Below are positions 11,618 through 31,983 of a DNA stretch of 32,000 nt, one piece after another. A program made the translations under genes and the position numbers. Source of the DNA: Patescibacteria group bacterium (GTDB taxonomy: Bacteria > Patescibacteriota > Minisyncoccia > UBA6257 > HR35); contig JAUQQN010000001.1 in the NCBI GenBank assembly GCA_030549845.1, positions 90,001 through 122,000 of the forward strand, in the 5' to 3' direction. The first letter of the stretch is position 1. Each line of letters begins with the position of its first letter. The notes under the pieces were generated by a model. It ran no database searches. It saw nothing but the letters and a program-made list of their open reading frames with translations, and had not been told where the DNA came from.

Positions 11618-12259
11618 TTAAGGTATAAGACAAAAATCTCGTCTATCTTTTTTGCATCCATATTTTTCGTTCAAAGAAGTATATCCATATTCAACCAAAT
11701 AAGATGTTCCATAAGCCCATGTATCACATACCCAGAATTTATTAGCTTGAGAAGAGTCTCTTGGCGGAGGATAATTTAAAAGACTATTCAAATTACCGTT
11801 AGGATCAAAAAATTCAACTCCACTTTCATATAAGCGTGGATTTTCAGACATAGATTCTTCTAAACGTGTATATAAAAGATATTTATTAAAAATAAATTTA
11901 TTATTAACAAGCGGACAGTCTACACCATTAGGTGAATTATCACAGCATTCAAAATAGCTATAATATGATCCTTTAGGAGGCTTTGGAAGATGTGATACAA
12001 TTCCAGCATCTTTTAAAATTGTTTCCAAAGCCTTCCAATTATCTTCTGCTGTAGAGGGGTCACCAGGTAACATAGGGCAAGTTCCAAATTTTATATAATA
12101 TTGCTCTAAGTAAAATTGTACATTTTTTAAATCCTGGACTCTTTTAATATCCCTTGCTTTTGCTGATATATAACCTACATTTCTTAAAAAAATGCCTGCT
12201 ATTATCCCTATCACTAAAATTATTATTCCTAATTCTATTAAGGTAAAACTTTTCCTCAT
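11618..12259 (-). CDS. Type IV pilin / pseudopilin-like protein with class III (prepilin) signal
   Basis: MRKSFTLIELGIIILVIGIIAGIFL is a prepilin peptidase motif followed by a hydrophobic helix. ARDIKRVQDLKNVQFYLEQYY is typical of the pilin alpha1-C region. Eight Cys in the globular domain. Confidence 0.75.
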   Translation of the reverse strand: MRKSFTLIELGIIILVIGIIAGIFLRNVGYISAKARDIKRVQDLKNVQFYLEQYYIKFGTCPMLPGDPSTAEDNWKALETILKDAGIVSHLPKPPKGSYYSYFECCDNSPNGVDCPLVNNKFIFNKYLLYTRLEESMSENPRLYESGVEFFDPNGNLNSLLNYPPPRDSSQANKFWVCDTWAYGTSYLVEYGYTSLNEKYGCKKDRRDFCLIP

Positions 12260-13147: not shown

Positions 13148-13180
13148 TTGACATAAATCAATTATAAAATTTTGTATAAT
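13148..13180 (+). promoter_or_regulatory. Candidate promoter: consensus TTGACA (13148-13153) and TATAAT (13175-13180)
   Basis: Both hexamers are perfect, but the spacer is 21 nt, which is non-optimal. The -10 box ends 6 nt before the ATG at 13187, implying a leaderless mRNA. Confidence 0.3.
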
Positions 13181-13186
13181 TTGGAA

Positions 13187-14026
13187 ATGGAAAAGATCAT
13201 TATTAAAAAAAATGGCGAAAGAGAAAAATTTAATGAAGAAAAATTTTGCAATAATTTAATAAATTTAGGATTAGATAAAGAAGCTGCTTCTAAAATTTGT
13301 AAAAAAATTTATGAAAAGATACCTAATGAAATTTCAAGTTTTCAGCTTTTTAAAATCACATTGAATGAACTAAAAAAAGAAAATATCGGGTTAGCATTAA
13401 AGTACAACCTAAGAGAAGCCATCTATAAATTAGGACCAACTGGTTTTCCTTTTGAAAAATATTTTGGGAAAATTTTAGCACATTATGGTTATGAAACTTT
13501 CGCAAACTTTTGGGTTGATGGAGCCTGTCTTAATTATGAGATAGATATTTTAGCGATGAAAGATAAAGAAAAGTTTATAATAGAATGTAAATATCACAGA
13601 GATAGAAATATAAAAACAGATCTTAAAACAGTGCTTTATGTTTTTGGAAGATGGGTAGACATAAATGAAAAATTTCCTGAGTTAAAACCTTGGCTTGTTA
13701 CAAATACAAAAATAACTTCAGAAGGAATTGAATTTGCTAATTGCAAAAAAATAAAAATTACTGCTTGGAAATTTCCAGAAAATGAATCTTTAGAAAAATT
13801 AATTGAAGCTAAAGCTTTATACCCTATTACAATTTTAATTAGAACTCCTTTTAATATAATTAGAAAATTAATAGAAAATAATTTTGTTTTGATACAAGAC
13901 TTTAATTTTTATAGCTTAGAAGATATTCACAAAAGAACAAATATAGATTTACAAGTTTTAAAAAAAATAAAATCTGAAATCGATGCTTTATTAGAGTTTA
14001 ATGAAAATTTAGTATCTTCGGGCTGA
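13187..14026 (+). CDS. ATP-cone domain protein fused to a PD-(D/E)xK (restriction endonuclease / Mrr_cat-like) domain with a C-terminal helical tail
   Basis: MEKIIIKKNGEREKFNEEKFCNNL is a typical ATP-cone start. YEIDILAMKDKEKFIIECKYH fits the D...E.K nuclease motif. The listed start at 13172 is a TTG; the ATG at 13187 is preferred. Confidence 0.65.
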   Translation: MEKIIIKKNGEREKFNEEKFCNNLINLGLDKEAASKICKKIYEKIPNEISSFQLFKITLNELKKENIGLALKYNLREAIYKLGPTGFPFEKYFGKILAHYGYETFANFWVDGACLNYEIDILAMKDKEKFIIECKYHRDRNIKTDLKTVLYVFGRWVDINEKFPELKPWLVTNTKITSEGIEFANCKKIKITAWKFPENESLEKLIEAKALYPITILIRTPFNIIRKLIENNFVLIQDFNFYSLEDIHKRTNIDLQVLKKIKSEIDALLEFNENLVSSG

Positions 14027-21916: not shown

Positions 21917-22017
21917 TTTTGTAAAAAATTAATACAAAAATAAAACTAATTTCCCAAATAAATTTTCATTTTATGGCAATTAATTATAATTTTAGCACAA
22001 ATTAAAAAAAATTTAAG

Positions 22018-22091
22018 CGGGGGAGGCAGGATTCGAACCTGCAACCTGCGGTTTTGGAGACCGCCGCTCTGCCAATTAGAGCTACTCCCCC
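22018..22091 (-). tRNA. trnW: tRNA-Trp (anticodon CCA), no encoded 3' CCA
   Basis: Hand-folded cloverleaf: acceptor GGGGGAG/CTCCCCC, D-arm GCTC/GAGC, anticodon stem GCGGT/ACCGC with loop CTCCAAA, T-arm GCAGG-TTCGAAT-CCTGC, discriminator G. Confidence 0.9.
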
Positions 22092-22099
22092 TAAGGAAG

Positions 22100-22128
22100 A
22101 TTATAACAAAAATATTAGGGGGAGGCAA
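22100..22128 (-). promoter_or_regulatory. Candidate sigma70-type promoter for tRNA-Trp (and possibly the rplB cluster)
   Basis: On the minus strand: -35 TTGCCT (22128-22123), 17-nt spacer, extended -10 TGTTATAAT (22108-22100). The -10 box ends 8 nt before the tRNA 5' end. Confidence 0.45.
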
Positions 22129-22143
22129 TTAGCCTCCCCCTAA
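22115..22143 (-). terminator. Rho-independent terminator-like hairpin downstream of the 576-aa gene
   Basis: Perfect 12-bp stem TTAGGGGGAGGC / GCCTCCCCCTAA with a 5-nt loop. On the minus strand it is followed by TATTTTTGTT. It is the only strongly GC-rich hairpin I saw in an intergenic region here. Confidence 0.6.
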
Positions 22144-22178
22144 ATACACTAAAACAACTCTTTCAAATAATATTACAG

Positions 22179-23909
22179 TTATTTCATTAATCCTTGAAGT
22201 ATATTCCCCAAAAGCTGAAGTAATAATTTCATATTTTCATCCTCTAAACCTACACCTGGAGCTTTTCTAGGAGCTGGTGGAAAGTGCTGATCTATATCGC
22301 GAGGGAGAATAAATGAATATTTCAATTCTTCTCTGCCTGTAAATCTTTCTGATGGAATATAGTTCCAATTTATATTAACAACCATCTTTCTTCCCCAGCC
22401 AAAATTATTACCAAAGGCCCTTATATTGTTGCAGATCATTATTTGATTTTTATTTCGAGAAAGATCGAAGTATAAAGTACCATAACATCTATCCATAGTT
22501 AATTTCCCAGTAGATTGGACTGTCTTTTTAGGATCAAACTTTAGCACTAAAAAGCCCCATTCCGCTGGATGTCCAAATTTCTTTATTAAACTATCAACAT
22601 CTCTTGGGCAAGTCCCATTGCAATCTTTAGTAATTTGTTTCTTTTGGCCGCTTGGATGCTCCAAACCAACATTTATTTTATTAAATCTCCCTGTAAATGA
22701 TGTGAAAAATACAGATACTTCTTTTGTAGAAGGATCAACATACCAGACTAATGCAGGATATTCTTCTGCACCAACTGTTGCTTCTGATTTTGCATTTGGA
22801 TAATAAGGAAGATGAATTGCATATCTATGAGATTTATCAGTTCCTGTGCTTTTAATTTTTAAGTCAGGAGCTTCAATACTTGTAAATTCTACTGAGAAGT
22901 AACCTTGATTATATGGATAATCTTTATCTTGATAGTCATAAGTATCTACATAAAACTCTACAGTGTGAGTCCCATTAACATCTGATAAAACTACATCAAT
23001 ACTTGGAGATAAATATTGCATAGAGGATGTCGAAGGAGTTCCTTTAATATTTTGATCTACTAAAACATACACATTTTTCACCTTAGCTTCTAGATTAAAT
23101 TTAAGGCTTAATCTAACATTATTTTGTTCAAAATTTTTGCCAACAAAAATAAATTGATCTACTTTATAATCTTTAAGCCCTCCGTCTAATCTTCTAACTT
23201 CTTGGGTCCTTATTTGAGGTATTATTTCAAGTTTTGGTTTTGGTTTTCCTTTTTCAATTAAAACAACTTTTTTAGCTATACCTTGTGAAAATCTTACTAA
23301 AACTATATTCCCTTCTTGTAACACTTCATTTGGCTTTAGGCTACTCCCTTTTGTATTTTCAAATTTAGTTTTTTGATTAAATTTAATAATAGGACCATTA
23401 ACAAGCTTAAAATAATTTCCTCCTACATTTTCTATTTCACCATCCCTATAGTTTTCATCAGGAGATAGAACTAATTTAAATTGCTTTATAGAGATATCGC
23501 TTCCTATCACTTTTATTGATCTACTTTCTTCAAATTTTGCTGGTAAACTTTGAAATTCAAATAAATCATCAGGCAAAGCAGCCCAAGCCATTCTCAAAAA
23601 TTCTTGACTATATGAGGAAGTTCCAAATGGTATTAATGATTCCTGAAGAGGTATAGAAACATTCAACATTCTCCATTCTTTTGATTTTGGATTATTTGGC
23701 TCTTCAAATACTACACCTAAAGAAAAATTAACATCTTTTTCACCATAAGATATTGCTTTAAGAAAACCTTTCCCTGATATTATAACATTATCAACATTAG
23801 AAATATATCTATCAATTAAAAGATAAGAGCCTTTATAAGTTTGGGCAATAACTATTGAACCCATCAAAAGGATTGCAGATAATGATAAAATATAAATTAA
23901 TTTTTTCAT
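22179..23909 (-). CDS. Secreted protein of unknown function (576 aa) with Sec signal peptide
   Basis: Signal peptide MKKLIYILSLSAILLMGSIVIA|Q. No motif I recognise. Has its own 175-nt upstream region and its own terminator hairpin. Confidence 0.7.
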   Translation of the reverse strand: MKKLIYILSLSAILLMGSIVIAQTYKGSYLLIDRYISNVDNVIISGKGFLKAISYGEKDVNFSLGVVFEEPNNPKSKEWRMLNVSIPLQESLIPFGTSSYSQEFLRMAWAALPDDLFEFQSLPAKFEESRSIKVIGSDISIKQFKLVLSPDENYRDGEIENVGGNYFKLVNGPIIKFNQKTKFENTKGSSLKPNEVLQEGNIVLVRFSQGIAKKVVLIEKGKPKPKLEIIPQIRTQEVRRLDGGLKDYKVDQFIFVGKNFEQNNVRLSLKFNLEAKVKNVYVLVDQNIKGTPSTSSMQYLSPSIDVVLSDVNGTHTVEFYVDTYDYQDKDYPYNQGYFSVEFTSIEAPDLKIKSTGTDKSHRYAIHLPYYPNAKSEATVGAEEYPALVWYVDPSTKEVSVFFTSFTGRFNKINVGLEHPSGQKKQITKDCNGTCPRDVDSLIKKFGHPAEWGFLVLKFDPKKTVQSTGKLTMDRCYGTLYFDLSRNKNQIMICNNIRAFGNNFGWGRKMVVNINWNYIPSERFTGREELKYSFILPRDIDQHFPPAPRKAPGVGLEDENMKLLLQLLGNILQGLMK

Positions 23910-26015: not shown

Positions 26016-26807
26016 CTATTTTATAATTAATGTACCTTGAAGGTCTGTCCTCCAATATTTTATATTTAATTTATTTAAAATATTAACCACTTCTTTATGA
26101 GGGTGGCCATATTTATTTTTGCCAACTTGAATAATTGCAAAAGAATTAGCAAAGAGTCTCAAAAAATTTTCCGAAGATGAGTATTTTGAGCCATGATGGG
26201 GTATTAAAATAAAATCACTTTTTAAAAATTCCTTATATTTATTAAACAAATATTCTTCCACCTTTTTATCTATATCTCCAGTTAGTAAAAAACTCTTATT
26301 ATTCTTAAAAACTTTCAAAACTAATGAATTTTGGTTTTCTGTCTTAAATAATTTGGGTGCCGGATTTAATACATAGATCTTTTCATAATTTGTTTCTATC
26401 AAATCTTCTTCATCTAAAGCCAGTAGAGGTATTTTACTTTCTTTGACTTTCTCGATAAAGGTTAAATAACCACTTTCTTCACTTTTTACTGGTGAAATTA
26501 AAATAATTCCAATTTTATATCTTTTTAAAATATCAAAAATGCCGCCATAATGATCTTTATCAGGATGAGAAATTATAATAACTTCTATTGTTTTATCATA
26601 AAAAGGCATTAATTTTTTCAACTCATTTAATGCTTTATAACCATAAGGGCCTACATCATACAAAACTTGTAATTTAGGATTATTTATCAAAACACTGCTT
26701 CCCTGCCCTATATCTAAAAATGCAATATAGCTTTCTTCTTTCAACAAATTAAAAATAAAAATTAATAGGAATATGTTAACTAAGCTTAAAATTAAAATCA
26801 ATCTCAT
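26016..26807 (-). CDS. comEC: ComEC C-terminal metallo-beta-lactamase domain encoded as a separate ORF with its own N-terminal TM helix
   Basis: IAFLDIGQGSSVLI, IISHPDKDHYGG, IPHHGS and GHPH match the ComEC/Rec2 MBL domain. Overlaps the upstream ORF by 32 nt in the +1 frame. Confidence 0.8.
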   Translation of the reverse strand: MRLILILSLVNIFLLIFIFNLLKEESYIAFLDIGQGSSVLINNPKLQVLYDVGPYGYKALNELKKLMPFYDKTIEVIIISHPDKDHYGGIFDILKRYKIGIILISPVKSEESGYLTFIEKVKESKIPLLALDEEDLIETNYEKIYVLNPAPKLFKTENQNSLVLKVFKNNKSFLLTGDIDKKVEEYLFNKYKEFLKSDFILIPHHGSKYSSSENFLRLFANSFAIIQVGKNKYGHPHKEVVNILNKLNIKYWRTDLQGTLIIK

Positions 26808-28059
26808 TTTTATTTAATTTATAAATCCAAAGAAAAAGAATTAAATAAATAAAAATCAAAGCACCTAAAGGAAGATATATATAAATTTTAGGGAAATATG
26901 AAAATGGTTTAAGAAGAGTCAAAAATAGTTGAAAAGGAAAATTTAAAATATTATTTAGTGGGCTAAAAAGAATTAAAAATATTCCTAAAAAGCCTAATAG
27001 CATCAAGAAAGGAATAAAAGGCACAAAAATCAAATTTGTAAATATAGATGATAAATTCATTTCTCCAAATTTATACCATATAAGAGGTAGTACCATGATT
27101 TGAGCTGATATAATCTCAGAAAATATTTTGAGTTTTAAAAAACTTCTTAATCTTTCTTCCAAATATAAAATTCCTAAAACTCCTAAAAAAGAAAGATGAA
27201 AAGCAAAATCACTTACTAAAGCCAGAGGATTAAAAATTCCTATAAAAAATACAGGTAATATAATTAGGTTTCTTTTTAAAGGTATTCTACCGATTGTTTT
27301 AGCTAAAATCAAAAATATTGACATTATACCTGCTCTTACCACAGACGATTGAAAACCTGCAAAAACTATAAAAAACAAAATAAAAATTATTGAAAAGAAA
27401 TTTATTAAAAATATAGAGGGGAAAATAAATTTAAATAAATGGTATGAGAACAAACTTAAAATAGTTAGGTTAAACCCTGACATTGCTGTAATATGAGAAA
27501 GACCGGTCTCTTTTAATAAATTTCTTATCTCATTATCTCTTATTTCCTCTCCATATAAAATACCACTTATTATCTCTGCAGTGGATAAAGAGTAATTTTT
27601 ATAAATAATTTCATTGATTTTATCTTTTAAATTAAAAATAGGAGTAAATGGTGATTTTTCGATTTTTTTTATGCTTTTAAAAAATATTTTGTTTTCAAAA
27701 ATCTCAAAATCTCCATATATTTTATCTTTTGGATTTACTTTTAAATGATAAGGTAAATAAACTATATAAGGTTCAGCTTTATAATAACTTAAGAATCTTT
27801 TATAGCTTGTGGGAGAAATTTCTCTATCTAAAATCAGAAATGCTTGACTTGAAGAAACTATATGAAAATAAAAGGCATAAAAATAACCGCAAATAAAAAG
27901 CAGTATTAAAACCAAAGAAAAGAAGGGTCTTTTGAAAATAAAAAATAAAATTAAATAAATTGTCAAAAGCAGCAAAAAATTTAATCCTCCGTAAAAATAA
28001 AAAATAATTCCTAAAATAAAAAATAAAACAGAATAAAAGAAAACATTAGCTAATATCAT
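26776..28059 (-). CDS. comEC: ComEC/Rec2 N-terminal (DUF4131-like) plus competence channel domain
   Basis: Polytopic membrane protein with LKETGLSHITAMSGFNLTIL (competence-domain motif GlsHllaiSG). ATG at 28059; the listed start at 28074 is a TTG. Confidence 0.8.
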   Translation of the reverse strand: MILANVFFYSVLFFILGIIFYFYGGLNFLLLLTIYLILFFIFKRPFFSLVLILLFICGYFYAFYFHIVSSSQAFLILDREISPTSYKRFLSYYKAEPYIVYLPYHLKVNPKDKIYGDFEIFENKIFFKSIKKIEKSPFTPIFNLKDKINEIIYKNYSLSTAEIISGILYGEEIRDNEIRNLLKETGLSHITAMSGFNLTILSLFSYHLFKFIFPSIFLINFFSIIFILFFIVFAGFQSSVVRAGIMSIFLILAKTIGRIPLKRNLIILPVFFIGIFNPLALVSDFAFHLSFLGVLGILYLEERLRSFLKLKIFSEIISAQIMVLPLIWYKFGEMNLSSIFTNLIFVPFIPFLMLLGFLGIFLILFSPLNNILNFPFQLFLTLLKPFSYFPKIYIYLPLGALIFIYLILFLWIYKLNKNEIDFNFKLS

Positions 28060-28060
28060 C

Positions 28061-29479
28061 TTAGGGACCACCAAAAATTCCTCTAACTGCAGCTAAAATG
28101 CCAGTTATTACTAAAAGAACAAAATAACCAATTACAGCCCATTTAATATATTCTGACCCAGTTTGTATATTTTTTAAATTAACCGGGGCTAATAAATAAA
28201 ATATTCCACCTATTATTAAAAGTAGAATAAATAATGTAGGAGCAAGTTTAAAAACAAAATTTTTTATTTCATCGAATATTCTTTCTGGAGTAATGCTTGC
28301 AAAACTACTTGTACCTTGATGTTCTTCACTAAAAATAATTGGTGGAATCACAGCAATAGGTTGTTCAGTTGTAGTTACTTCAACTTTTGCTGGTGTAATC
28401 TTCATATTTAACCTTCTTACTTGCTCAATGATTTCCTGGGTATCTGAAGCATAAGGCTGAAATATATCTTTTTCAAATTCTTGTACGTTTTTCCCTGCCG
28501 GAGTTTCACCTTTTATTATCACAGAAAGTAATAGATGGCATGTTGATTCTTGAGTTGTACCAGTCATATAAAGATTTTTATACCGAGCTTTTATATCTTT
28601 AACTTCTTGTACCAATGAATAAAAATAGTTGAGACTATTTAAATCTTTTACTGCCTTATAAACTTCATAGGTTTTTGAGGCTAAATCTTTAACCTGTTGA
28701 CCAAGTTCGTAGTAATTTTTTATCAAATCTTGAGCCATAGAGTATAATTTAGATAAATTTTCTCCGTGTTGGTTTCTTAATTTTTGATAATCAAACTCAT
28801 ATACCATATTTACACTATAAGATGGTTGTATCCCTCCTCCAATGGATTCTTTCCATTTTTTAGTTATAATACCAGTATTTAAACCTTCGTTTATCAAAGA
28901 TTGGACATTAGTATTTCTAATTAAGTCAGGATAAAAAGGAGTGTTATTTACAAAACTTTGTAATACAATAACACAAGCATTAGGTTGTTTTAACATTTTT
29001 TCTACACTATCTGAAAAATAAGGATCTTTACTTGTTATCCATTGGATTAGTTTATCGATTGAAGAATATTGAACTCCAGAAATGATTTTTCTAGGCCATT
29101 CAAATACAAAAACTAATTCATCTAAGGTATCCACTTGTTGAGAAATTTTATCAATTAAATTATCAATTTCTTCTTTAGGAGCACAATAGTCTTTATTTTT
29201 GTAGGTAGATTGTAAATACTTTCCCCAACCATCTAAATTATGGAGCCATAGGATACCTAAAAGATAATCTGTATATAATGATGGGTCTGGGATATAGTCA
29301 CTCCAAATTAGATATTCTTGTTCAGAACATTTTTTTCCTTTTGCTTTATTCCATAATTTTTGAAAATATTCTTTTGACGATTCTATTTGAGCATGAATAA
29401 CATTAGAAAAAACAAAAATTAAAAATATTAACAAAAATAAGAGTATAAATCTGTTATTTTCTATCCTCTTGCTAGCCAT
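28061..29479 (-). CDS. Secreted 472-aa protein: large ectodomain with a coiled-coil VKD[LI] repeat and a C-terminal two-TM pilin-like hairpin
   Basis: Signal peptide ...SNVIHA|Q. Repeats QQVKDL / AVKDL / EVKDI at aa 261-296. The C-terminus IKNFVFKLAPTLFILLLIIGGIFYLLAP...QTGSEYIKWAVIGYFVLLVITGIL is paralogous to the two downstream-numbered small ORFs. Confidence 0.6.
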   Translation of the reverse strand: MASKRIENNRFILLFLLIFLIFVFSNVIHAQIESSKEYFQKLWNKAKGKKCSEQEYLIWSDYIPDPSLYTDYLLGILWLHNLDGWGKYLQSTYKNKDYCAPKEEIDNLIDKISQQVDTLDELVFVFEWPRKIISGVQYSSIDKLIQWITSKDPYFSDSVEKMLKQPNACVIVLQSFVNNTPFYPDLIRNTNVQSLINEGLNTGIITKKWKESIGGGIQPSYSVNMVYEFDYQKLRNQHGENLSKLYSMAQDLIKNYYELGQQVKDLASKTYEVYKAVKDLNSLNYFYSLVQEVKDIKARYKNLYMTGTTQESTCHLLLSVIIKGETPAGKNVQEFEKDIFQPYASDTQEIIEQVRRLNMKITPAKVEVTTTEQPIAVIPPIIFSEEHQGTSSFASITPERIFDEIKNFVFKLAPTLFILLLIIGGIFYLLAPVNLKNIQTGSEYIKWAVIGYFVLLVITGILAAVRGIFGGP

Positions 29480-29880
29480 TGTATTAATTCCATGATTTTT
29501 TCAATTATAAATAAAATTATAAAACCTATAATTATCCAAAGTAAAATTGTTTTTCCTTGTTGAATCAAATCTTGTTTAAAGGGACTTATAACCAAAAGCC
29601 CTGCTACATAGGTTAAACCTATAATGAATAAAATGACACCAAGATATCTTAACGCTCTTGTTACTGTTTTTATGCAATTTGTAATTTTTTCTAAAGGTGT
29701 ATCACCTGATAAACATTTCACATCTGCAGATGGCCTCAAGAGATCATAAAAATACCTCCAAGCATCCGGAGAAGACGGGAATATATTTGAATCCGAAGAG
29801 TTACTTTGTTGAGCAAAAATTAAATTTAAAAATCCTAACAAAAAAATAAAAAATATTAAAAAAACAAGCGTTTTTTTCAT
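29461..29880 (-). CDS. Small secreted membrane protein, VirB2/TrbC (T4SS pilin)-like architecture
   Basis: Signal peptide ...LNLIFA|Q, a Cys pair, then TM1 (LGVILFIIGLTYVAGLLVI), loop QQGK, and TM2 (ILLWIIIGFIILFII). Confidence 0.55.
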   Translation of the reverse strand: MKKTLVFLIFFIFLLGFLNLIFAQQSNSSDSNIFPSSPDAWRYFYDLLRPSADVKCLSGDTPLEKITNCIKTVTRALRYLGVILFIIGLTYVAGLLVISPFKQDLIQQGKTILLWIIIGFIILFIIEKIMELIQWLARG

Positions 29881-30227
29881 TTTACAAATAATTTTGGCCT
29901 TAAAAAGTCTAATATTAGATCAAAAATAACTCCTGCTAATAATAAAATTACATAATAAACTAATGAATCAACCATAAGTCTTTTACCTTGATCTAACCAG
30001 GCTCTATTATACCCGCCTAGCATTACCATAAATGCACCAACCAAAGACGCGATTGCTGCTATCCAATAACCGAAAATTAACATCGCTCTTATTACTCTTT
30101 GTAATGTTTTGACAAATTCGCCCCATGTACAGTCTAATCCTTTACATTTAACTATAGGAATAGTATCAGTTTGTGCAAATGTTAAGCTTATTAAAAAAAT
30201 TAAAAACAAAAAGTAAAATTTTTTCAT
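29877..30227 (-). CDS. Small secreted membrane protein, VirB2/TrbC (T4SS pilin)-like architecture
   Basis: Signal peptide ...LISLTFA|Q, a Cys pair (KCKGLDC), then TM1 (IFGYWIAAIASLVGAFMVML), loop DQGK, and TM2 (LVYYVILLLAGVIF). ATGA overlaps at both ends. Confidence 0.55.
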   Translation of the reverse strand: MKKFYFLFLIFLISLTFAQTDTIPIVKCKGLDCTWGEFVKTLQRVIRAMLIFGYWIAAIASLVGAFMVMLGGYNRAWLDQGKRLMVDSLVYYVILLLAGVIFDLILDFLRPKLFVK

Positions 30228-31447
30228 TTTATAAAAATTTTATTAAATTGCAATCTTGTTAAAATTAACCTTGCATTTTCTCGATCTTCGAGCCATTTAT
30301 CAACAATATCTTTAAAAATACCTTCTGCATAATTTCTATTAAATTCAGTAAAATCACTACCGATTAGCAAATCTTTTGCTATTTCTCTTTTTTCTCCACT
30401 TAGTTCATCAAAGACATCTTTTCTTATAGGAAGCAAGTTAAAATCTCTTATAAAGTCTTTATAATTTTCATCTAAGATTTCTAATGCCTTCCATGCGAAT
30501 TTATGTTTCCCTTGTTTTGGTACTGCAAAGCTATAAATTTTTAAATAATTTGTTTGATCTAGTCTACCTGAAAATTTAGGAAATTCAGTTATTCTAAACT
30601 TAAGCCTTCTATTTATTTCTTTAATTTTTTCAGTGTCAGAATAAAATCCGAAGGCAAAAACAACCTTACCTCTTCCAAATTCTTCTAAAGAATTACTATT
30701 TCCGTAATCCCAAGAATATAAATTTGAGGTTTTATCAGCAAACTGGGTATAGAATTCTACAGTTTTAGAAAAATTATTTAAATTTTTATATCCTTTCCCA
30801 TGTAAATTTCTGTGTATGGTTATAAATATTTCATAAAAATTCTCAATATTATTTGATCTACCTAAAGCTACAGGAATTATATTTTTTAAAAATGGATTTA
30901 CTTTAATACCTTGTATTGTTTTTATCAATTCTTCAAATGTTCTAGGTGGGTTTATTATTCCCAAAATATCCAAAAATTCTTCATTAGAGAACATAACAAG
31001 AGTATCAAAACTTACTGGATAGTTCAAAAGCCTATCAGAAAGAACTAAACTTTCTTCAGGATATTTTTCTTTCTTTATCTTTTCACCTGAGTATTCTTTA
31101 AAAATATTTTTGTTTTCTTTTATAAAATTGTTATCAACATAGACTAAATCTGGTATATTCCCTGCTGCTATTTCTTTCAAAAGATTTTCTCTTATATATT
31201 CAACAGGTTTTTTTATTGTTTCTACTTTTATACAATAAGCTGAAAAAATTTTTTGTATATTTGTGAATTTTTGATCAGAAAAAGGAGATAAAATTCTTAA
31301 AGTTATATTATAGCAAGGAAGAGTTTGTTTTTTAGGCTTTGAAATTTTTCCTAGAACATAGAAAGAAAAAATTATCACAAAAATTACTGCACCAAGAGCT
31401 ATTTGAGCGATTCTATTATTTTTTATTCTTTCAATTATCTCCTCCAT
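30224..31447 (-). CDS. Membrane-anchored extracellular solute-binding-protein-like protein (SBP family 1 pattern)
   Basis: N-terminal TM helix. LLKEIAAGNIPDLVYVDNNF and YPVSFDTLVMFSNEEFLDILGIINPPRTFEELIKTI resemble the MalE-type SBP lobes. No permease or ATPase genes lie adjacent. Confidence 0.6.
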   Translation of the reverse strand: MEEIIERIKNNRIAQIALGAVIFVIIFSFYVLGKISKPKKQTLPCYNITLRILSPFSDQKFTNIQKIFSAYCIKVETIKKPVEYIRENLLKEIAAGNIPDLVYVDNNFIKENKNIFKEYSGEKIKKEKYPEESLVLSDRLLNYPVSFDTLVMFSNEEFLDILGIINPPRTFEELIKTIQGIKVNPFLKNIIPVALGRSNNIENFYEIFITIHRNLHGKGYKNLNNFSKTVEFYTQFADKTSNLYSWDYGNSNSLEEFGRGKVVFAFGFYSDTEKIKEINRRLKFRITEFPKFSGRLDQTNYLKIYSFAVPKQGKHKFAWKALEILDENYKDFIRDFNLLPIRKDVFDELSGEKREIAKDLLIGSDFTEFNRNYAEGIFKDIVDKWLEDRENARLILTRLQFNKIFIK

Positions 31448-31467: not shown

Positions 31468-31983
31468 TTATTTTACAACTACTAATAAATAATAATTTTC
31501 TCCTATAAATTTTTGGAATTCAATTTTTTTGTTTTTAACATGAAAATACGCTCTTATAGCCTCTAAGCTTACTGGAGTTCCGTAAAGAAATGGTAATTTC
31601 TTAGTAGGTTCTAAGATTATCAAATATCCCCCATTTTTCAAAACCCTTAAAGCTTCATCTAAAATTTCTTCATAATTTTCATTTTGGAATAATAGTTGGC
31701 TTATAAACACAACATCAAAAAAATCATTTTCATAAGGCAACTTTTTTACATCTCCTTTATAAAATACAACATTATCTAAACCCAAAATTTCTGTTAATTC
31801 TTTTGCTTCATTTATTGCATCTTCTAAAATATCAATGGCATAAACCTTTCCATATTCAACTTTTTTAGAAAGAAGGCTTGTAAAATATCCTCCGCCACAT
31901 CCCAACTCTGCAACTTTATCACCTTTTTTGATATAGAACCTTGAAGAAAGTTCTTCGATTATCTCTTTTGGATTCAAAAACAT
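31468..31983 (-). CDS. Class I SAM-dependent methyltransferase
   Basis: SAM-binding motif I VAELGCGGGYFT, acidic post-I AIDILEDAI, and LKNGGYLIILEP (Methyltransf_11/25-like). Confidence 0.8.
   Translation of the reverse strand: MFLNPKEIIEELSSRFYIKKGDKVAELGCGGGYFTSLLSKKVEYGKVYAIDILEDAINEAKELTEILGLDNVVFYKGDVKKLPYENDFFDVVFISQLLFQNENYEEILDEALRVLKNGGYLIILEPTKKLPFLYGTPVSLEAIRAYFHVKNKKIEFQKFIGENYYLLVVVK

Follow-up and report, generated by a model that had tools for sequence, protein, structure and literature searches.

Gene content of the locus

Within the window, that is, the whole 32-kb stretch of DNA analysed, the interval 28061-30227 corresponds to exactly three consecutive, overlapping minus-strand open reading frames, here called S1, S2 and L (Table 1). 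Each of them displays an N-terminal hydrophobic signal segment and two C-terminal hydrophobic helices, the Kyte-Doolittle segments being located at aa 5-23, 50-68 and 88-106 in S1, at aa 5-23, 80-98 and 112-130 in S2, and at aa 11-29, 415-433 and 447-465 in L. The three products are predicted to carry cleavable signal peptides of the SPase-I type (FA|Q, FA|Q and HA|Q, respectively), leaving mature ectodomains of about 20 (S1), 46 (S2) and 374 aa (L) ahead of the C-terminal module, close to the figures of about 25, 50 and 390 aa given in a preliminary description of this DNA. In L, the cleavable signal peptide together with an even number of transmembrane (TM) helices means that the large domain is predicted to lie outside the cell and not in the cytoplasm, in keeping with the surface role that the same description had proposed for it.

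The A|Q signal ends, which had been noticed earlier, are seen in all four SPase-type signals of the window, and Gln+1 is invariant in the alignments of S1 and S2 orthologues. The possibility that A|Q constitutes a pilin-specific processing site was rejected, since an unrelated 576-aa protein shares A|Q and an S41 peptidase has G|Q; most probably, A|Q reflects a lineage-wide signal-peptidase preference. A class III signal peptide (G|F-x-x-x-E) with its N-terminal helix was not found in S1, S2 or L, which have SPase-I signals and a C-terminal hydrophobic module. The genes are tightly packed, with overlaps in the window of 4 nt between the stop of the upstream solute-binding-protein (SBP)-like gene and the S1 start, 4 nt between S1 and S2, and 19 nt between S2 and L. 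A promoter scan returned promoter-like sites no more common than in shuffled DNA and did not define the transcription unit, and three terminator-like sites, two of them on the minus strand within the S1 and S2 genes, fell inside the shuffle range.

Table 1. Coordinates of the genes and protein features discussed in the text (positions in the window).
Feature	Position	Strand	Description
SAM-dependent methyltransferase	31468..31983	(-)	171 aa; Pfam Methyltransf_31/11/25, E = 9e-26; first gene of the conserved module
SBP-like membrane-anchored protein	30224..31447	(-)	407 aa; TM anchor aa 13-31, then SBP_bac_8, E = 1.7e-10
S1	29877..30227	(-)	116 aa
S1 parts	29877..30227	(-)	Predicted signal peptide aa 1-18 (FA|Q), ecto segment of ~20 aa, two-helix hairpin, conserved tail FDLILDFLxPK
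S2	29461..29880	(-)	139 aa
S2 parts	29461..29880	(-)	Predicted signal peptide aa 1-23 (FA|Q), 46-aa ecto segment, two-helix hairpin
L	28061..29479	(-)	472 aa
L signal peptide	29390..29479	(-)	Predicted, aa 1-30, HA|Q; hydrophobic 11-29; homologue consensus [AG]|Q
L hypervariable head	28388..29389	(-)	aa 31-364, mostly helical folded ectodomain (predicted)
Three VKD[LI] motifs	28592..28693	(-)	aa 263, 277 and 293, within the L head
L neck and T4SS_pilin hairpin	28064..28387	(-)	aa 365-472: IAVIPP...ITPERIF neck, TM1, loop, TM2, GGP end
Split ComEC	26016..28074	(-)	Competence ORF 26776-28074 (E = 6.5e-35); metallo-beta-lactamase ORF 26016-26807 (Lactamase_B, E = 1.3e-12)

A shared two-helix module of the VirB2/TrbC type

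The three genes had been proposed to be paralogues sharing one C-terminal two-helix module, a resemblance that could also be explained by the generic composition of TM hairpins in otherwise unrelated genes. Direct BLASTP/tblastn similarity is indeed weak, with BLASTP between the S1, S2 and L pairs giving E = 0.005, 3e-4 and 0.09 at 20-27% identity, and the hhalign probability for S1-L is only 36-53%. Against this explanation, profile-profile comparison of the TM module without signal peptides (hhalign) yielded scores of 27.7 for S1-S2, 45.0 for S2-L and 26.8 for S1-L, whereas reversed profiles reached 9.6-14.3 and column shuffling gave 11 +/- 2.5 (maximum 18), placing the real scores 5-12 SD over the column-shuffled profiles and well above the reversed ones. 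Moreover, the three proteins independently match one Pfam clan, and the same single-domain T4SS pilins are matched by all three profiles with E = 1e-8 to 1e-14. Unrelated genes with similar composition are in this way largely refuted and appear very improbable, and the three C-terminal hairpins are, as judged from these profiles, homologous well beyond TM composition.

The preliminary description saw in the module a pilin-type polymerisation unit but gave no family name; the profile matches agree with that view and identify the module of S1, S2 and L as the VirB2/TrbC-type T4SS_pilin domain (PF18895/PF04956). The C-terminal part of L (aa 365-472) taken alone scores 27.5 bits on PF18895 against a gathering cut-off of 26.6 (24.3 bits for the full-length protein), and 13/13 L orthologues match this family (best 2e-8). 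S2 of the window lies below the Pfam gathering cut-off (20.2 bits, E = 6e-4), PF18895 being matched by 7/7 of its orthologues (best 7e-6) and TrbC by 5/7 (best 3e-6). S1 of the window is also below the cut-off (TrbC, 15.3 bits, E = 0.024), so that its family membership rests on profile-level links; four of seven S1 orthologues match PF04956 TrbC (best E = 1e-4). With its three overlapping genes at 20-27% identity, the locus corresponds to what has been described as a patescibacterial pilin array (2-11 tandem or one-gene-spaced pilin genes, low identity of ~25%), and under the thresholds of PMC12102498 (i-E < 1e-3, coverage > 50%) L and S2 are called while S1 is missed.

In the AlphaFold2 (AF2) model, the L hairpin is a helix-loop-helix at aa 398-430 and 443-469, and the loops linking the helices in the three proteins are short and basic (NRAWLDQGKR, KQDLIQQGK and NLKNIQTGSEYIK). 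Gly441 in the L loop is invariant, and aa 365-472 of L are 55-73% identical among orthologues. The pattern "[IV]K[TN]" plus "Q.G" that had been put forward as the signature of the module is not kept in S1 and S2 orthologues; what survives of it is the loop Gly alone, invariant in S1 and L. A search of 1.84 billion representative sequences with the L module gave 606 matches at E <= 1e-3, and the wider family includes polypeptides with 2-7 tandem modules. A sequence search of the PDB with the module profile gave chance ABCB7 matches only.

Three distinct orthologous groups and their natural fusions

S1 orthologues align end to end at 47-59% identity, and their short ecto segment holds an invariant Cys28/Cys33 pair. 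The ecto segment of S2 has a different set of invariant residues (W41, YFY43-45 and Cys56/Cys69), one S2 orthologue (P0049) being named "pilin" by NCBI. S1 and S2 are conserved to an equal degree, and the motifs as well as the invariant Cys pair are particular to each. S1, S2 and L form three separate orthologous groups of ancient origin that keep the same order, a feature that is new here.

Evidence that the trio acts as one unit came from four representative protein clusters (P0076, P0081, P0083 and P0085) in which S1, S2 and L occur in that order as a single polypeptide, the domains being recognised at E = 1e-12 to 1e-27. The clusters are at most 50% identical to one another, and no internal signal-peptide core was found in any of the four, although xFA|x / VYA|Q motifs are retained in the linkers of the fused proteins. 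The two fusions with complete N-termini and unsplit segments, P0076 and P0085, have one signal peptide and six TM helices; P0081 shows eight segments, which are read as one TM helix split in two, and P0083 has six TM segments without an N-terminal signal peptide. The presence of such fusions in four distant clusters implies equimolar use of the three proteins, which would act as one 1:1:1 unit. The AF2 model of P0076, built from a 5-row alignment, reached a pLDDT of 54 and a pTM of 0.29 and displayed three hairpins only, being too poor to show their packing.

A hypervariable head replaced as a cassette

The large domain of L behaves very differently from its surroundings. Among loci its sequence is on average 24% identical, whereas the genes around it reach 44-62%, and the mean for the head is still 24% where those genes are 65-83% identical; the dN/dS ratio is 0.94 for the head and 0.12-0.26 for the neighbours, at equal dS. 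In two independent pairs of near-identical strains the head cassette was found to be cleanly replaced: in L020 versus L009, flanks that are 99.8-99.9% identical stand on either side of ~1 kb of unrelated head DNA, and L025 versus L003 display the same head replacement between flanks of 99.5-99.6% identity. In addition, 21 pairs have C-termini at least 90% identical but unrelated heads and, conversely, the same head type is found on anchors that are just 33-65% identical. In the closest relative of the window the contigs break where L begins. Silent head cassettes were not detected in the window by tblastn.

The AF2 model of L has a pLDDT of 83 and a pTM of 0.67, with the head blocks mostly at pLDDT 85-98. 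A Foldseek search of this model against PDB and BFVD returned nothing at E <= 1e-3, the head thus being confidently modelled yet without a match to a known fold, and a homology search with the L head alone retrieved only the window's own protein. A VirB5-like head is not claimed, VirB5/TrwJ appearing in Foldseek only at E = 0.8 with TM scores of 0.15-0.21, and matches to Borrelia surface proteins (prob 0.9, E = 0.2-0.7) were dismissed as generic helical bundles.

The earlier proposal of an exposed recognition protein finds support in a head that is confidently folded, hypervariable and swapped as a cassette, and the L head emerges as a strong candidate for deciding which partner cell this ultra-small bacterium recognises. 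The same signatures fit equally well a selective pressure other than adhesion, exerted by phages or by host defence. As for the three VKD[LI] repeats, they are present, but the coiled-coil stalk that they had suggested is not supported. A tripeptide occurring three or more times arises in 71% of residue shuffles of L, and the motifs are unconserved in homologues, so that they do not rise above chance; the AF2 model places them inside a compact helical domain, on a helical hairpin formed by helices 231-276 and 280-304.

A conserved operon in two genomic neighbourhoods

The order methyltransferase (MT), SBP-like protein, S1, S2 and L was found in every locus examined, across two different genomic neighbourhoods, defining what appears as a conserved operon of a SAM-methyltransferase, a membrane-anchored sugar-type binding protein and the trio; this arrangement is also new here. 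Every locus examined has a methyltransferase orthologue immediately upstream of its SBP-like gene, this orthologue sharing 51% identity in the distant lineage with the gyrA context, and any role of this enzyme in the system is suggested by linkage only. The SBP-like protein has a single TM segment; among solved structures it comes nearest to 4qrz, the SBP of a sugar ABC transporter (E = 4e-11), and it shares 35% identity along its entire length with the orthologue at L016, a distant locus (E = 1e-87). No family match to a nucleotide-binding domain, ATPase or permease was obtained in the operon, the sole membrane partners of the SBP-like protein being the three hairpins.

What follows the trio is variable. 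In the window, a split ComEC lies immediately downstream of L, with an overlap of 14 nt, and this adjacency is restricted to one subclade (the window and loci L001, L003, L006, L007, L009, L011, L020 and L025). ComEC is replaced by HSP20-HrcA-GrpE-DnaK in L005, L014 and L015, and by further pilin genes (small T4SS_pilin) in L016, L018 and L019. VirB4, VirB6, VirB3 and VirD4 were not detected in the 32-kb window nor within +/-8-10 kb at the related loci examined, and the tie of the trio to type IV secretion (T4SS) is consequently one of family name only.

Comparison with known systems

Publications of 2023-2025 described tandem arrays of such pilins in Patescibacteria, and the kind is therefore already known: VirB2-like arrays of 2-11 genes with ~25% identity were reported in 383 Patescibacteria assemblies and are essential in S. 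epibionticum (PMC12102498, PMC10633639, PMC12857230). The trio resembles these arrays (Wang et al. 2023, PMC10633639; Quinonero-Coronel et al. 2025, PMC12102498) in Pfam family, in consisting of divergent tandem paralogues (~20-27%), in Sec-type signal peptides and in the monoderm CPR host. The published arrays are, however, mostly near virB4, although ~40% of Patescibacterial pilin genes are not (PMC12102498), whereas the present trio has no T4SS gene in the searched neighbourhood. Likewise, their members have been treated as interchangeable variants, possibly serving antigenic or host-range variation, whereas those described here form three fixed orthologous groups that are coupled to SBP-like and methyltransferase genes, are sometimes fused, and include one member with a large, cassette-swapped head. 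In the literature searched, fixed groups, SBP/methyltransferase coupling, fusion, a swapped head and a T4SS-remote trio were not found. A PrgB-type adhesin was not found in Patescibacteria by a published survey (PMC12102498), and a T4SS pilus, the extracellular, lipid-containing filament expected of this superfamily, has not yet been seen in these bacteria, reviews calling it a possibility.

With VirB2, TrbC and TraA (Agrobacterium T-pilus, RP4 and F) the three proteins share the signal peptide, the two-helix hairpin, the short basic loop and, as predicted here, the external termini. N-terminal modification (acetylation, cyclisation) recurs among those pilins, and the invariant N-terminal Gln could here form pyroglutamate. 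Classical pilins differ in being 70-120 aa homopolymer subunits in diderm hosts, with VirB5, a protein unrelated to them, as tip adhesin; to our knowledge, no large domain fused to a classical conjugative pilin is known. A functional analogy, and no more than that, can be drawn with GspI-GspJ-GspK and the TcpB/CofB-type minor pilins, which combine consecutive paralogous pilin genes, a 1:1:1 cap and one large outward extra domain. Those tip complexes of type II secretion and type IV pili have an unrelated fold, with a class III signal peptide, a prepilin peptidase and a single N-terminal helix, whereas S1, S2 and L combine SPase-I signals with a hairpin at the C-terminus. Finally, the H. pylori ComB system consists of a VirB2-like ComB2 plus ComEC and, like the archaeal Ced/Ted import pili, pairs VirB2-like proteins with DNA uptake, beyond conjugative export, which recalls the ComEC gene adjoining L in one subclade. 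Ced/Ted and ComB encode a VirB4-type ATPase alongside, however, whereas here there is no ATPase in the operon and the ComEC adjacency is not family-wide.

Proposed model and alternatives

The interpretation that we favour, with a probability of roughly 55%, is that the trio constitutes a heterotrimeric VirB2-type pilin-like core (cap or protomer) of a Paceibacteria/Parcubacteria bacterium, displaying an exchangeable recognition head. In this model, S1, S2 and L would be members of the VirB2/TrbC-type pilin superfamily that separated long ago and cannot replace one another. Each would be exported via Sec and cut by signal peptidase I ahead of Gln, which would yield a helix-loop-helix hairpin whose two ends lie outside the cell while the short basic loop stays inside. 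The three hairpins would join 1:1:1 in one unit with conserved juxtamembrane necks, as suggested by the gene fusions, the strict gene order and the overlapping start/stop codons. Such a unit may either cap or initiate a pilus of the T4SS type or be repeated as the protomer of a decorated filament. One point against the model is that a 335-aa head on each third subunit would be bulky for a VirB2-type filament. L would supply its folded head of ~335 aa on the outside, as a recognition surface for the host/partner cell or for whatever selects on it. The head would be under diversifying selection, and its cassette may be exchanged by recombination, with the signal-peptide/S2 flank on one side and the neck on the other as conserved borders. 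The co-transcribed SBP-like protein and methyltransferase would be conserved partners (co-receptor, assembly or maturation factors), and genes at another place in the genome would provide the energy/extraction machinery (VirB4 and others).

The preliminary description had opted for a classical pilus, with S1 as abundant major pilin, S2 as minor pilin and L as rare tip adhesin, all built on one shared polymerising module. The VirB2-type module common to the three proteins is real, the size gradient and the variable head of L suit a tip adhesin, and the extra small T4SS_pilin genes after the trio in three loci make pilin hierarchies plausible. This division of roles nevertheless seems unlikely: the natural S1-S2-L fusions force equimolar synthesis where a major pilin would be expected to outnumber the others greatly, and the equal conservation of S1 and S2 as distinct groups makes them look like specialised subunits rather than bulk and accessory ones. 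A reading without any pilus, which we regard as rather unlikely too, is that of a static six-helix membrane complex working with the SBP-like protein in reception, sensing or uptake, the pilin fold being reused just as a membrane anchor. It would account for the SBP-like gene being always directly upstream and translationally coupled, for the lack of T4SS machinery nearby (window and related loci), for the 6-TM product of the fusions and for the 2-7 tandem modules of the wider family, odd for filament subunits. Yet the complex has no permease, ATPase or similarity to a transporter family, its consistent matches are to pilin families, and SBP-like proteins may also serve as adhesins or chaperones.

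The position of ComEC raises the further idea of a DNA-uptake organelle comparable to H. pylori ComB or the archaeal Ced import pilus. The 14-nt overlap and the ComEC adjacency in nine loci are what such an organelle would lead one to expect, but the adjacency is limited to one subclade, with a chaperone operon or more pilin genes following the trio elsewhere; as synteny extends across the entire neighbourhood, this linkage may simply be a historical one. In addition, ComEC is dispensable in S. epibionticum, whereas the T4SS and pilins are essential, and DNA binding would not call for a hypervariable head, which makes this analogy distinctly improbable.

Significance for Patescibacteria

Little is known of how Patescibacteria/CPR cells find and hold their hosts, or of what their essential but enigmatic T4SS pilin arrays are for. 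The present locus offers a concrete candidate, in which an adhesin-like head would be built directly on a VirB2-type pilin module, and this head bears the population-genetic signatures of a recognition/escape determinant: its dN/dS is close to 1, and its alleles are cleanly replaced between 99.5-99.9% identical strains. The fusions imply that three particular pilin paralogues act together, which would recast the arrays as a "defined hetero-oligomer" where "interchangeable variants" had been seen. More tentatively, and possible rather than probable, MT-SBP-S1-S2-L may represent an undescribed surface organelle of Paceibacteria, with a heterotrimeric VirB2-like core capping or building a filament, L as host-range determinant of these episymbionts, ancient, mutually unrelated head alleles exchanged between strains through recombination at the conserved flanks, and the SBP-like protein as co-receptor. 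If this were true, the host specificity of an uncultivated CPR lineage would be readable, and perhaps re-programmable, from one 1-kb cassette. On a more practical level, the head alleles could mark strain and host range in metagenomes, and the natural fusion provides structural biologists with a single-chain construct.

Shared Membrane Module of the Three Proteins

The three minus-strand, pilin-like proteins designated S1, S2 and L were initially described as having an N-terminal hydrophobic segment followed by A/Q (the slash marking cleavage) and a hairpin of two C-terminal hydrophobic helices, and all three do carry these elements. Direct BLASTP comparisons among them were weak (E = 0.005, 3e-4 and 0.09; 20-27% identity). 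Profiles were therefore built from orthologues in related loci (alignments A2 for S1, A3 for S2 and A4 for the last 108 aa of L) and compared over the module only, with signal peptides removed. The hhalign scores were 27.7 for S1-S2, 45.0 for S2-L and 26.8 for S1-L, against 10.2, 9.6 and 14.3, respectively, with reversed profiles, and with column-shuffled profiles (30 per pair) the means lay at 10.5-11.9 (SD 2.2-2.7; maximum 18.5). As the scores exceeded both controls, the proposed common C-terminal module is real. Some finer points of the preliminary description did not survive: neither [IV]K[TN] nor Q.G is kept among S1 and S2 orthologues, and the VKD[LI] repeats of L (aa 263, 277, 293), formerly read as a coiled-coil stalk, are absent from homologues, a triple tripeptide arising in 71% of shuffles.

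The L C-terminus matched the Pfam family PF18895 (T4SS_pilin) with E = 3e-5 and, taken alone, scored 27.5 bits (cut-off 26.6), with matches in 13/13 orthologues. S2 orthologues matched PF18895 (7/7) and TrbC/VirB2 (5/7), one of them being named "pilin" by NCBI, and S1 orthologues matched TrbC/VirB2 (4/7, best E = 1e-4). The S1, S2 and L profiles also match the same single-domain pilins (1e-8 to 1e-14). To this family belong the patescibacterial genes described as "VirB2-like pilin arrays". The arrays are reported to be essential in Southlakia epibionticum (PMC10633639); a survey of 3,035 genomes counted 441 of them, with 2-11 genes each at about 25% identity (PMC12102498), and a 2025 review singles them out as the only T4SS of Gram-positive type that has pilins (PMC12857230). 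This kind of locus is thus already known.

In the wider T4SS_pilin family, many chains have 2-7 tandem pilin modules, and other proteins present long N-terminal regions (Gly/Pro/Thr-rich, with ~100-aa repeated segments) before two modules; examples of either kind from the profile search are P0183 (820 aa), P0168 (606 aa), P0133, P0104 (713 aa) and P0126 (651 aa). Such multi-module "poly-pilins" seem common in the family and were not mentioned in the literature searched.

A Conserved Gene String and Natural Fusions

The window is AT-rich (GC ~28%) and its chromosome bears a ribosomal-protein operon, SecY, AspRS, ClpB and ComEC. S1, S2 and L lie in the middle of a tight gene string, and the order from the methyltransferase to L is kept in all loci examined. 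The MAGs that supplied the related loci bear the labels Candidatus Paceibacter, Parcubacteria or Minisyncoccia, which places the organism in the Paceibacteria/Parcubacteria group of the Patescibacteria. The module occurs in two genomic settings, with either Peptidase_M50 or gyrA upstream; for the distant lineage with gyrA, identity is 51% in the methyltransferase and, over the full length, 35% in the SBP-like protein. The closest solved relative of the latter is a sugar SBP. Both proteins are conserved partners of the trio. S1 and S2 orthologues share 40-59% identity end to end, each protein with its own invariant Cys pair; the two are fixed, specialised subunits and not recent duplicates.

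Features of the window and related loci (mean identity over nine loci; dN/dS by Nei-Gojobori between the window and its nearest relative, L023, at about 96-97.5% nt identity)
Feature	Position	Strand	Description	Mean identity	dN/dS
Methyltransferase	31468-31983	-	SAM-methyltransferase, first in string	62%	0.12
SBP-like	30224-31447	-	TM-anchored SBP_bac_8 protein; overlaps S1 by 4 nt	44%	0.13
S1	29877-30227	-	116 aa ORF; overlaps S2 by 4 nt	47%	0.21
S2	29461-29880	-	139 aa ORF; overlaps L by 19 nt	46%	0.26
L	28061-29479	-	472 aa ORF; overlaps ComEC by 14 nt		
L head			aa 31-364	24%	
L codons 1-334					0.94
L neck + hairpin			aa 365-472	55%	
Split ComEC	26776-28074 + 26016-26807	-	last in string, after L	53%	
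tRNA-Trp + 576-aa protein	22017-23909	-	between AspRS and rplB		
284-aa protein	13172-14026	+	ATP-cone + Mrr_cat		
213-aa ORF	11618-12259	-	prepilin-like N-terminus		
Second pilin set, L016	11825-15080		gyrA-context lineage		
Second pilin set, L018	11265-12718		gyrA-context lineage		
Second pilin set, L019	9140-11471		gyrA-context lineage		

When 1.84 billion representatives were searched exhaustively with a profile, 606 matched at E <= 1e-3. In four clusters (P0076, P0081, P0083 and P0085) the S1, S2 and L modules follow each other in one polypeptide (domain E = 1e-12 to 1e-27), colinear with the concatenated proteins of unfused loci, with the Cys pairs kept and at the orthologous locus. A single signal peptide and six TM helices are present in both P0076 and P0085, P0081 shows eight segments with one TM helix split in two, and P0083, probably a truncated gene call, starts without a signal peptide. 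No internal signal-peptide core was found in any of the four. Since both ends of each module are predicted to lie outside the cell, fusion would preserve the topology. These proteins constitute Rosetta-stone evidence for a 1:1:1 S1:S2:L functional unit, and such equimolarity conflicts with the major pilin, minor pilin and tip adhesin roles proposed in the preliminary description.

In the alignment of the fusions (A5), the signal peptides of S2 and L have lost their hydrophobic cores (columns about 170-200 and 300-330), and the former cleavage positions retain FVFA/D, YTFA/A, LVYA/Q and IVYA/Q. Because these cleavage-type motifs persist, signal peptidase may still process the polyprotein behind the in-to-out helix that precedes each of them. 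The structural model of a fusion was weak and gave no reading of hairpin packing.

In the gyrA-context lineage, a second T4SS_pilin/TrbC gene set (78-332 aa) and a 501-aa ORF directly follow the trio; these sets could be the bulk pilins missing from the window's locus.

A Hypervariable, Exchanged Head

Across a 29-member alignment of L, the last ~105 residues are 55-73% identical and the preceding ~340 barely align. Identity of the head remains ~23% even between genomes with 65-83% identity in their other genes, and the high dN/dS of this region accompanies dS values that are alike in S1, S2 and L (0.08-0.09) and lower in the methyltransferase (0.02) and SBP-like gene (0.06). Two independent strain pairs show clean cassette replacement: loci L020 and L009 are 99.9% identical over S1 and S2 as far as nt 53 of L, and 99.8% identical from the last ~350 nt of L to 7.6 kb downstream, with no detectable similarity over the intervening 0.95-1.05 kb; L025 and L003 behave likewise (flanks 99.6% and 99.5%). 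The heads of 44 L proteins fall into at least 11 groups with no recognisable similarity to each other, and 21 pairs of these proteins have C-termini >= 90% identical and unrelated heads; the window's head group is found on anchors only 33-65% identical.

Three of four contigs of the window's closest relative (Logan; L021, L022, L024) stop 0-150 nt from the L start, an assembly-break signature of strain-level head polymorphism. "Headless" L-type proteins also exist (P0089, 135 aa; P0095, 142 aa; P0090, 201 aa), in which the signal peptide is followed directly by the conserved neck (V.VCPPGIFG...C.YP, containing a Cys pair) and the hairpin. They suggest that an ancestral small pilin acquired the head by insertion between its signal peptide and its neck.

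AlphaFold2 modelled L confidently (pLDDT 83, pTM 0.67; most head blocks at pLDDT 85-98) with a head that is mostly helices, three of them long (231-276, 280-304, 332-361), and includes one beta-hairpin (205-229), followed by a low-confidence linker and the hairpin (398-430 and 443-469). Foldseek searches of PDB and BFVD with this model gave no match at E <= 1e-3; VirB5/TrwJ reached only E = 0.8.

Possible Function

The best-supported reading of these comparisons is that S1, S2 and L would form a heterotrimeric VirB2-like core whose head, exchangeable and under positive selection, is displayed either at the cell surface or along a T4SS-type filament. Functionally, it most resembles the minor-pilin cap (1:1:1) of T2SS and type IV pili, where one member bears a large extra domain; S1, S2 and L do not belong to that pilin family, because their signals are of SPase-I type and their module is a C-terminal hairpin. 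The ComEC genes adjoining L suggest a ComB- or Ced-like role in DNA uptake, but this adjacency is not conserved across the family: ComEC follows L in one subclade only, with a chaperone operon or further pilin genes elsewhere. The main weakness of the T4SS-linked reading is that T4SS machinery was found nearby neither in the window nor in any related locus examined.

The observation in the preliminary description is confirmed, and its interpretation has partial support. The locus belongs to the Patescibacterial VirB2-like pilin arrays, of which it is an undescribed variant, marked by a trio in fixed order, by natural fusions and by a head swapped as a cassette; the conserved module, fusions and swappable head were not found in the pilin-array literature searched. 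As a candidate host-recognition determinant, it is worth follow-up.

Other Features of the Window

The split ComEC consists of two overlapping ORFs with Competence and metallo-beta-lactamase domains. The split is kept in all relatives having ComEC there (L001, L003, L006, L007, L009, L020 and L025), so it is real and not a frameshift error. The 213-aa ORF starts MRKSFTLIELGIIILVIG, an N-terminus resembling that of type IV prepilins, with a class III signal and the FTLIEL motif; it has no Pfam match. The protein is probably a pilin or pseudopilin of T4P type, which would give the genome a second, unrelated pilus system. The 576-aa secreted protein has a signal ending in IA/Q and a weak DUF5666 match. 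AspRS and rplB are adjacent in L001, and other secreted proteins (Laminin_G_3, GH3) lie between ComEC and AspRS in L003 and L025; the stretch near AspRS has the look of an island in which genes for secreted proteins vary. The 284-aa protein, combining an ATP-cone with an Mrr_cat restriction-endonuclease-like domain, is encoded between Sua5/YrdC-MGMT and SecY.
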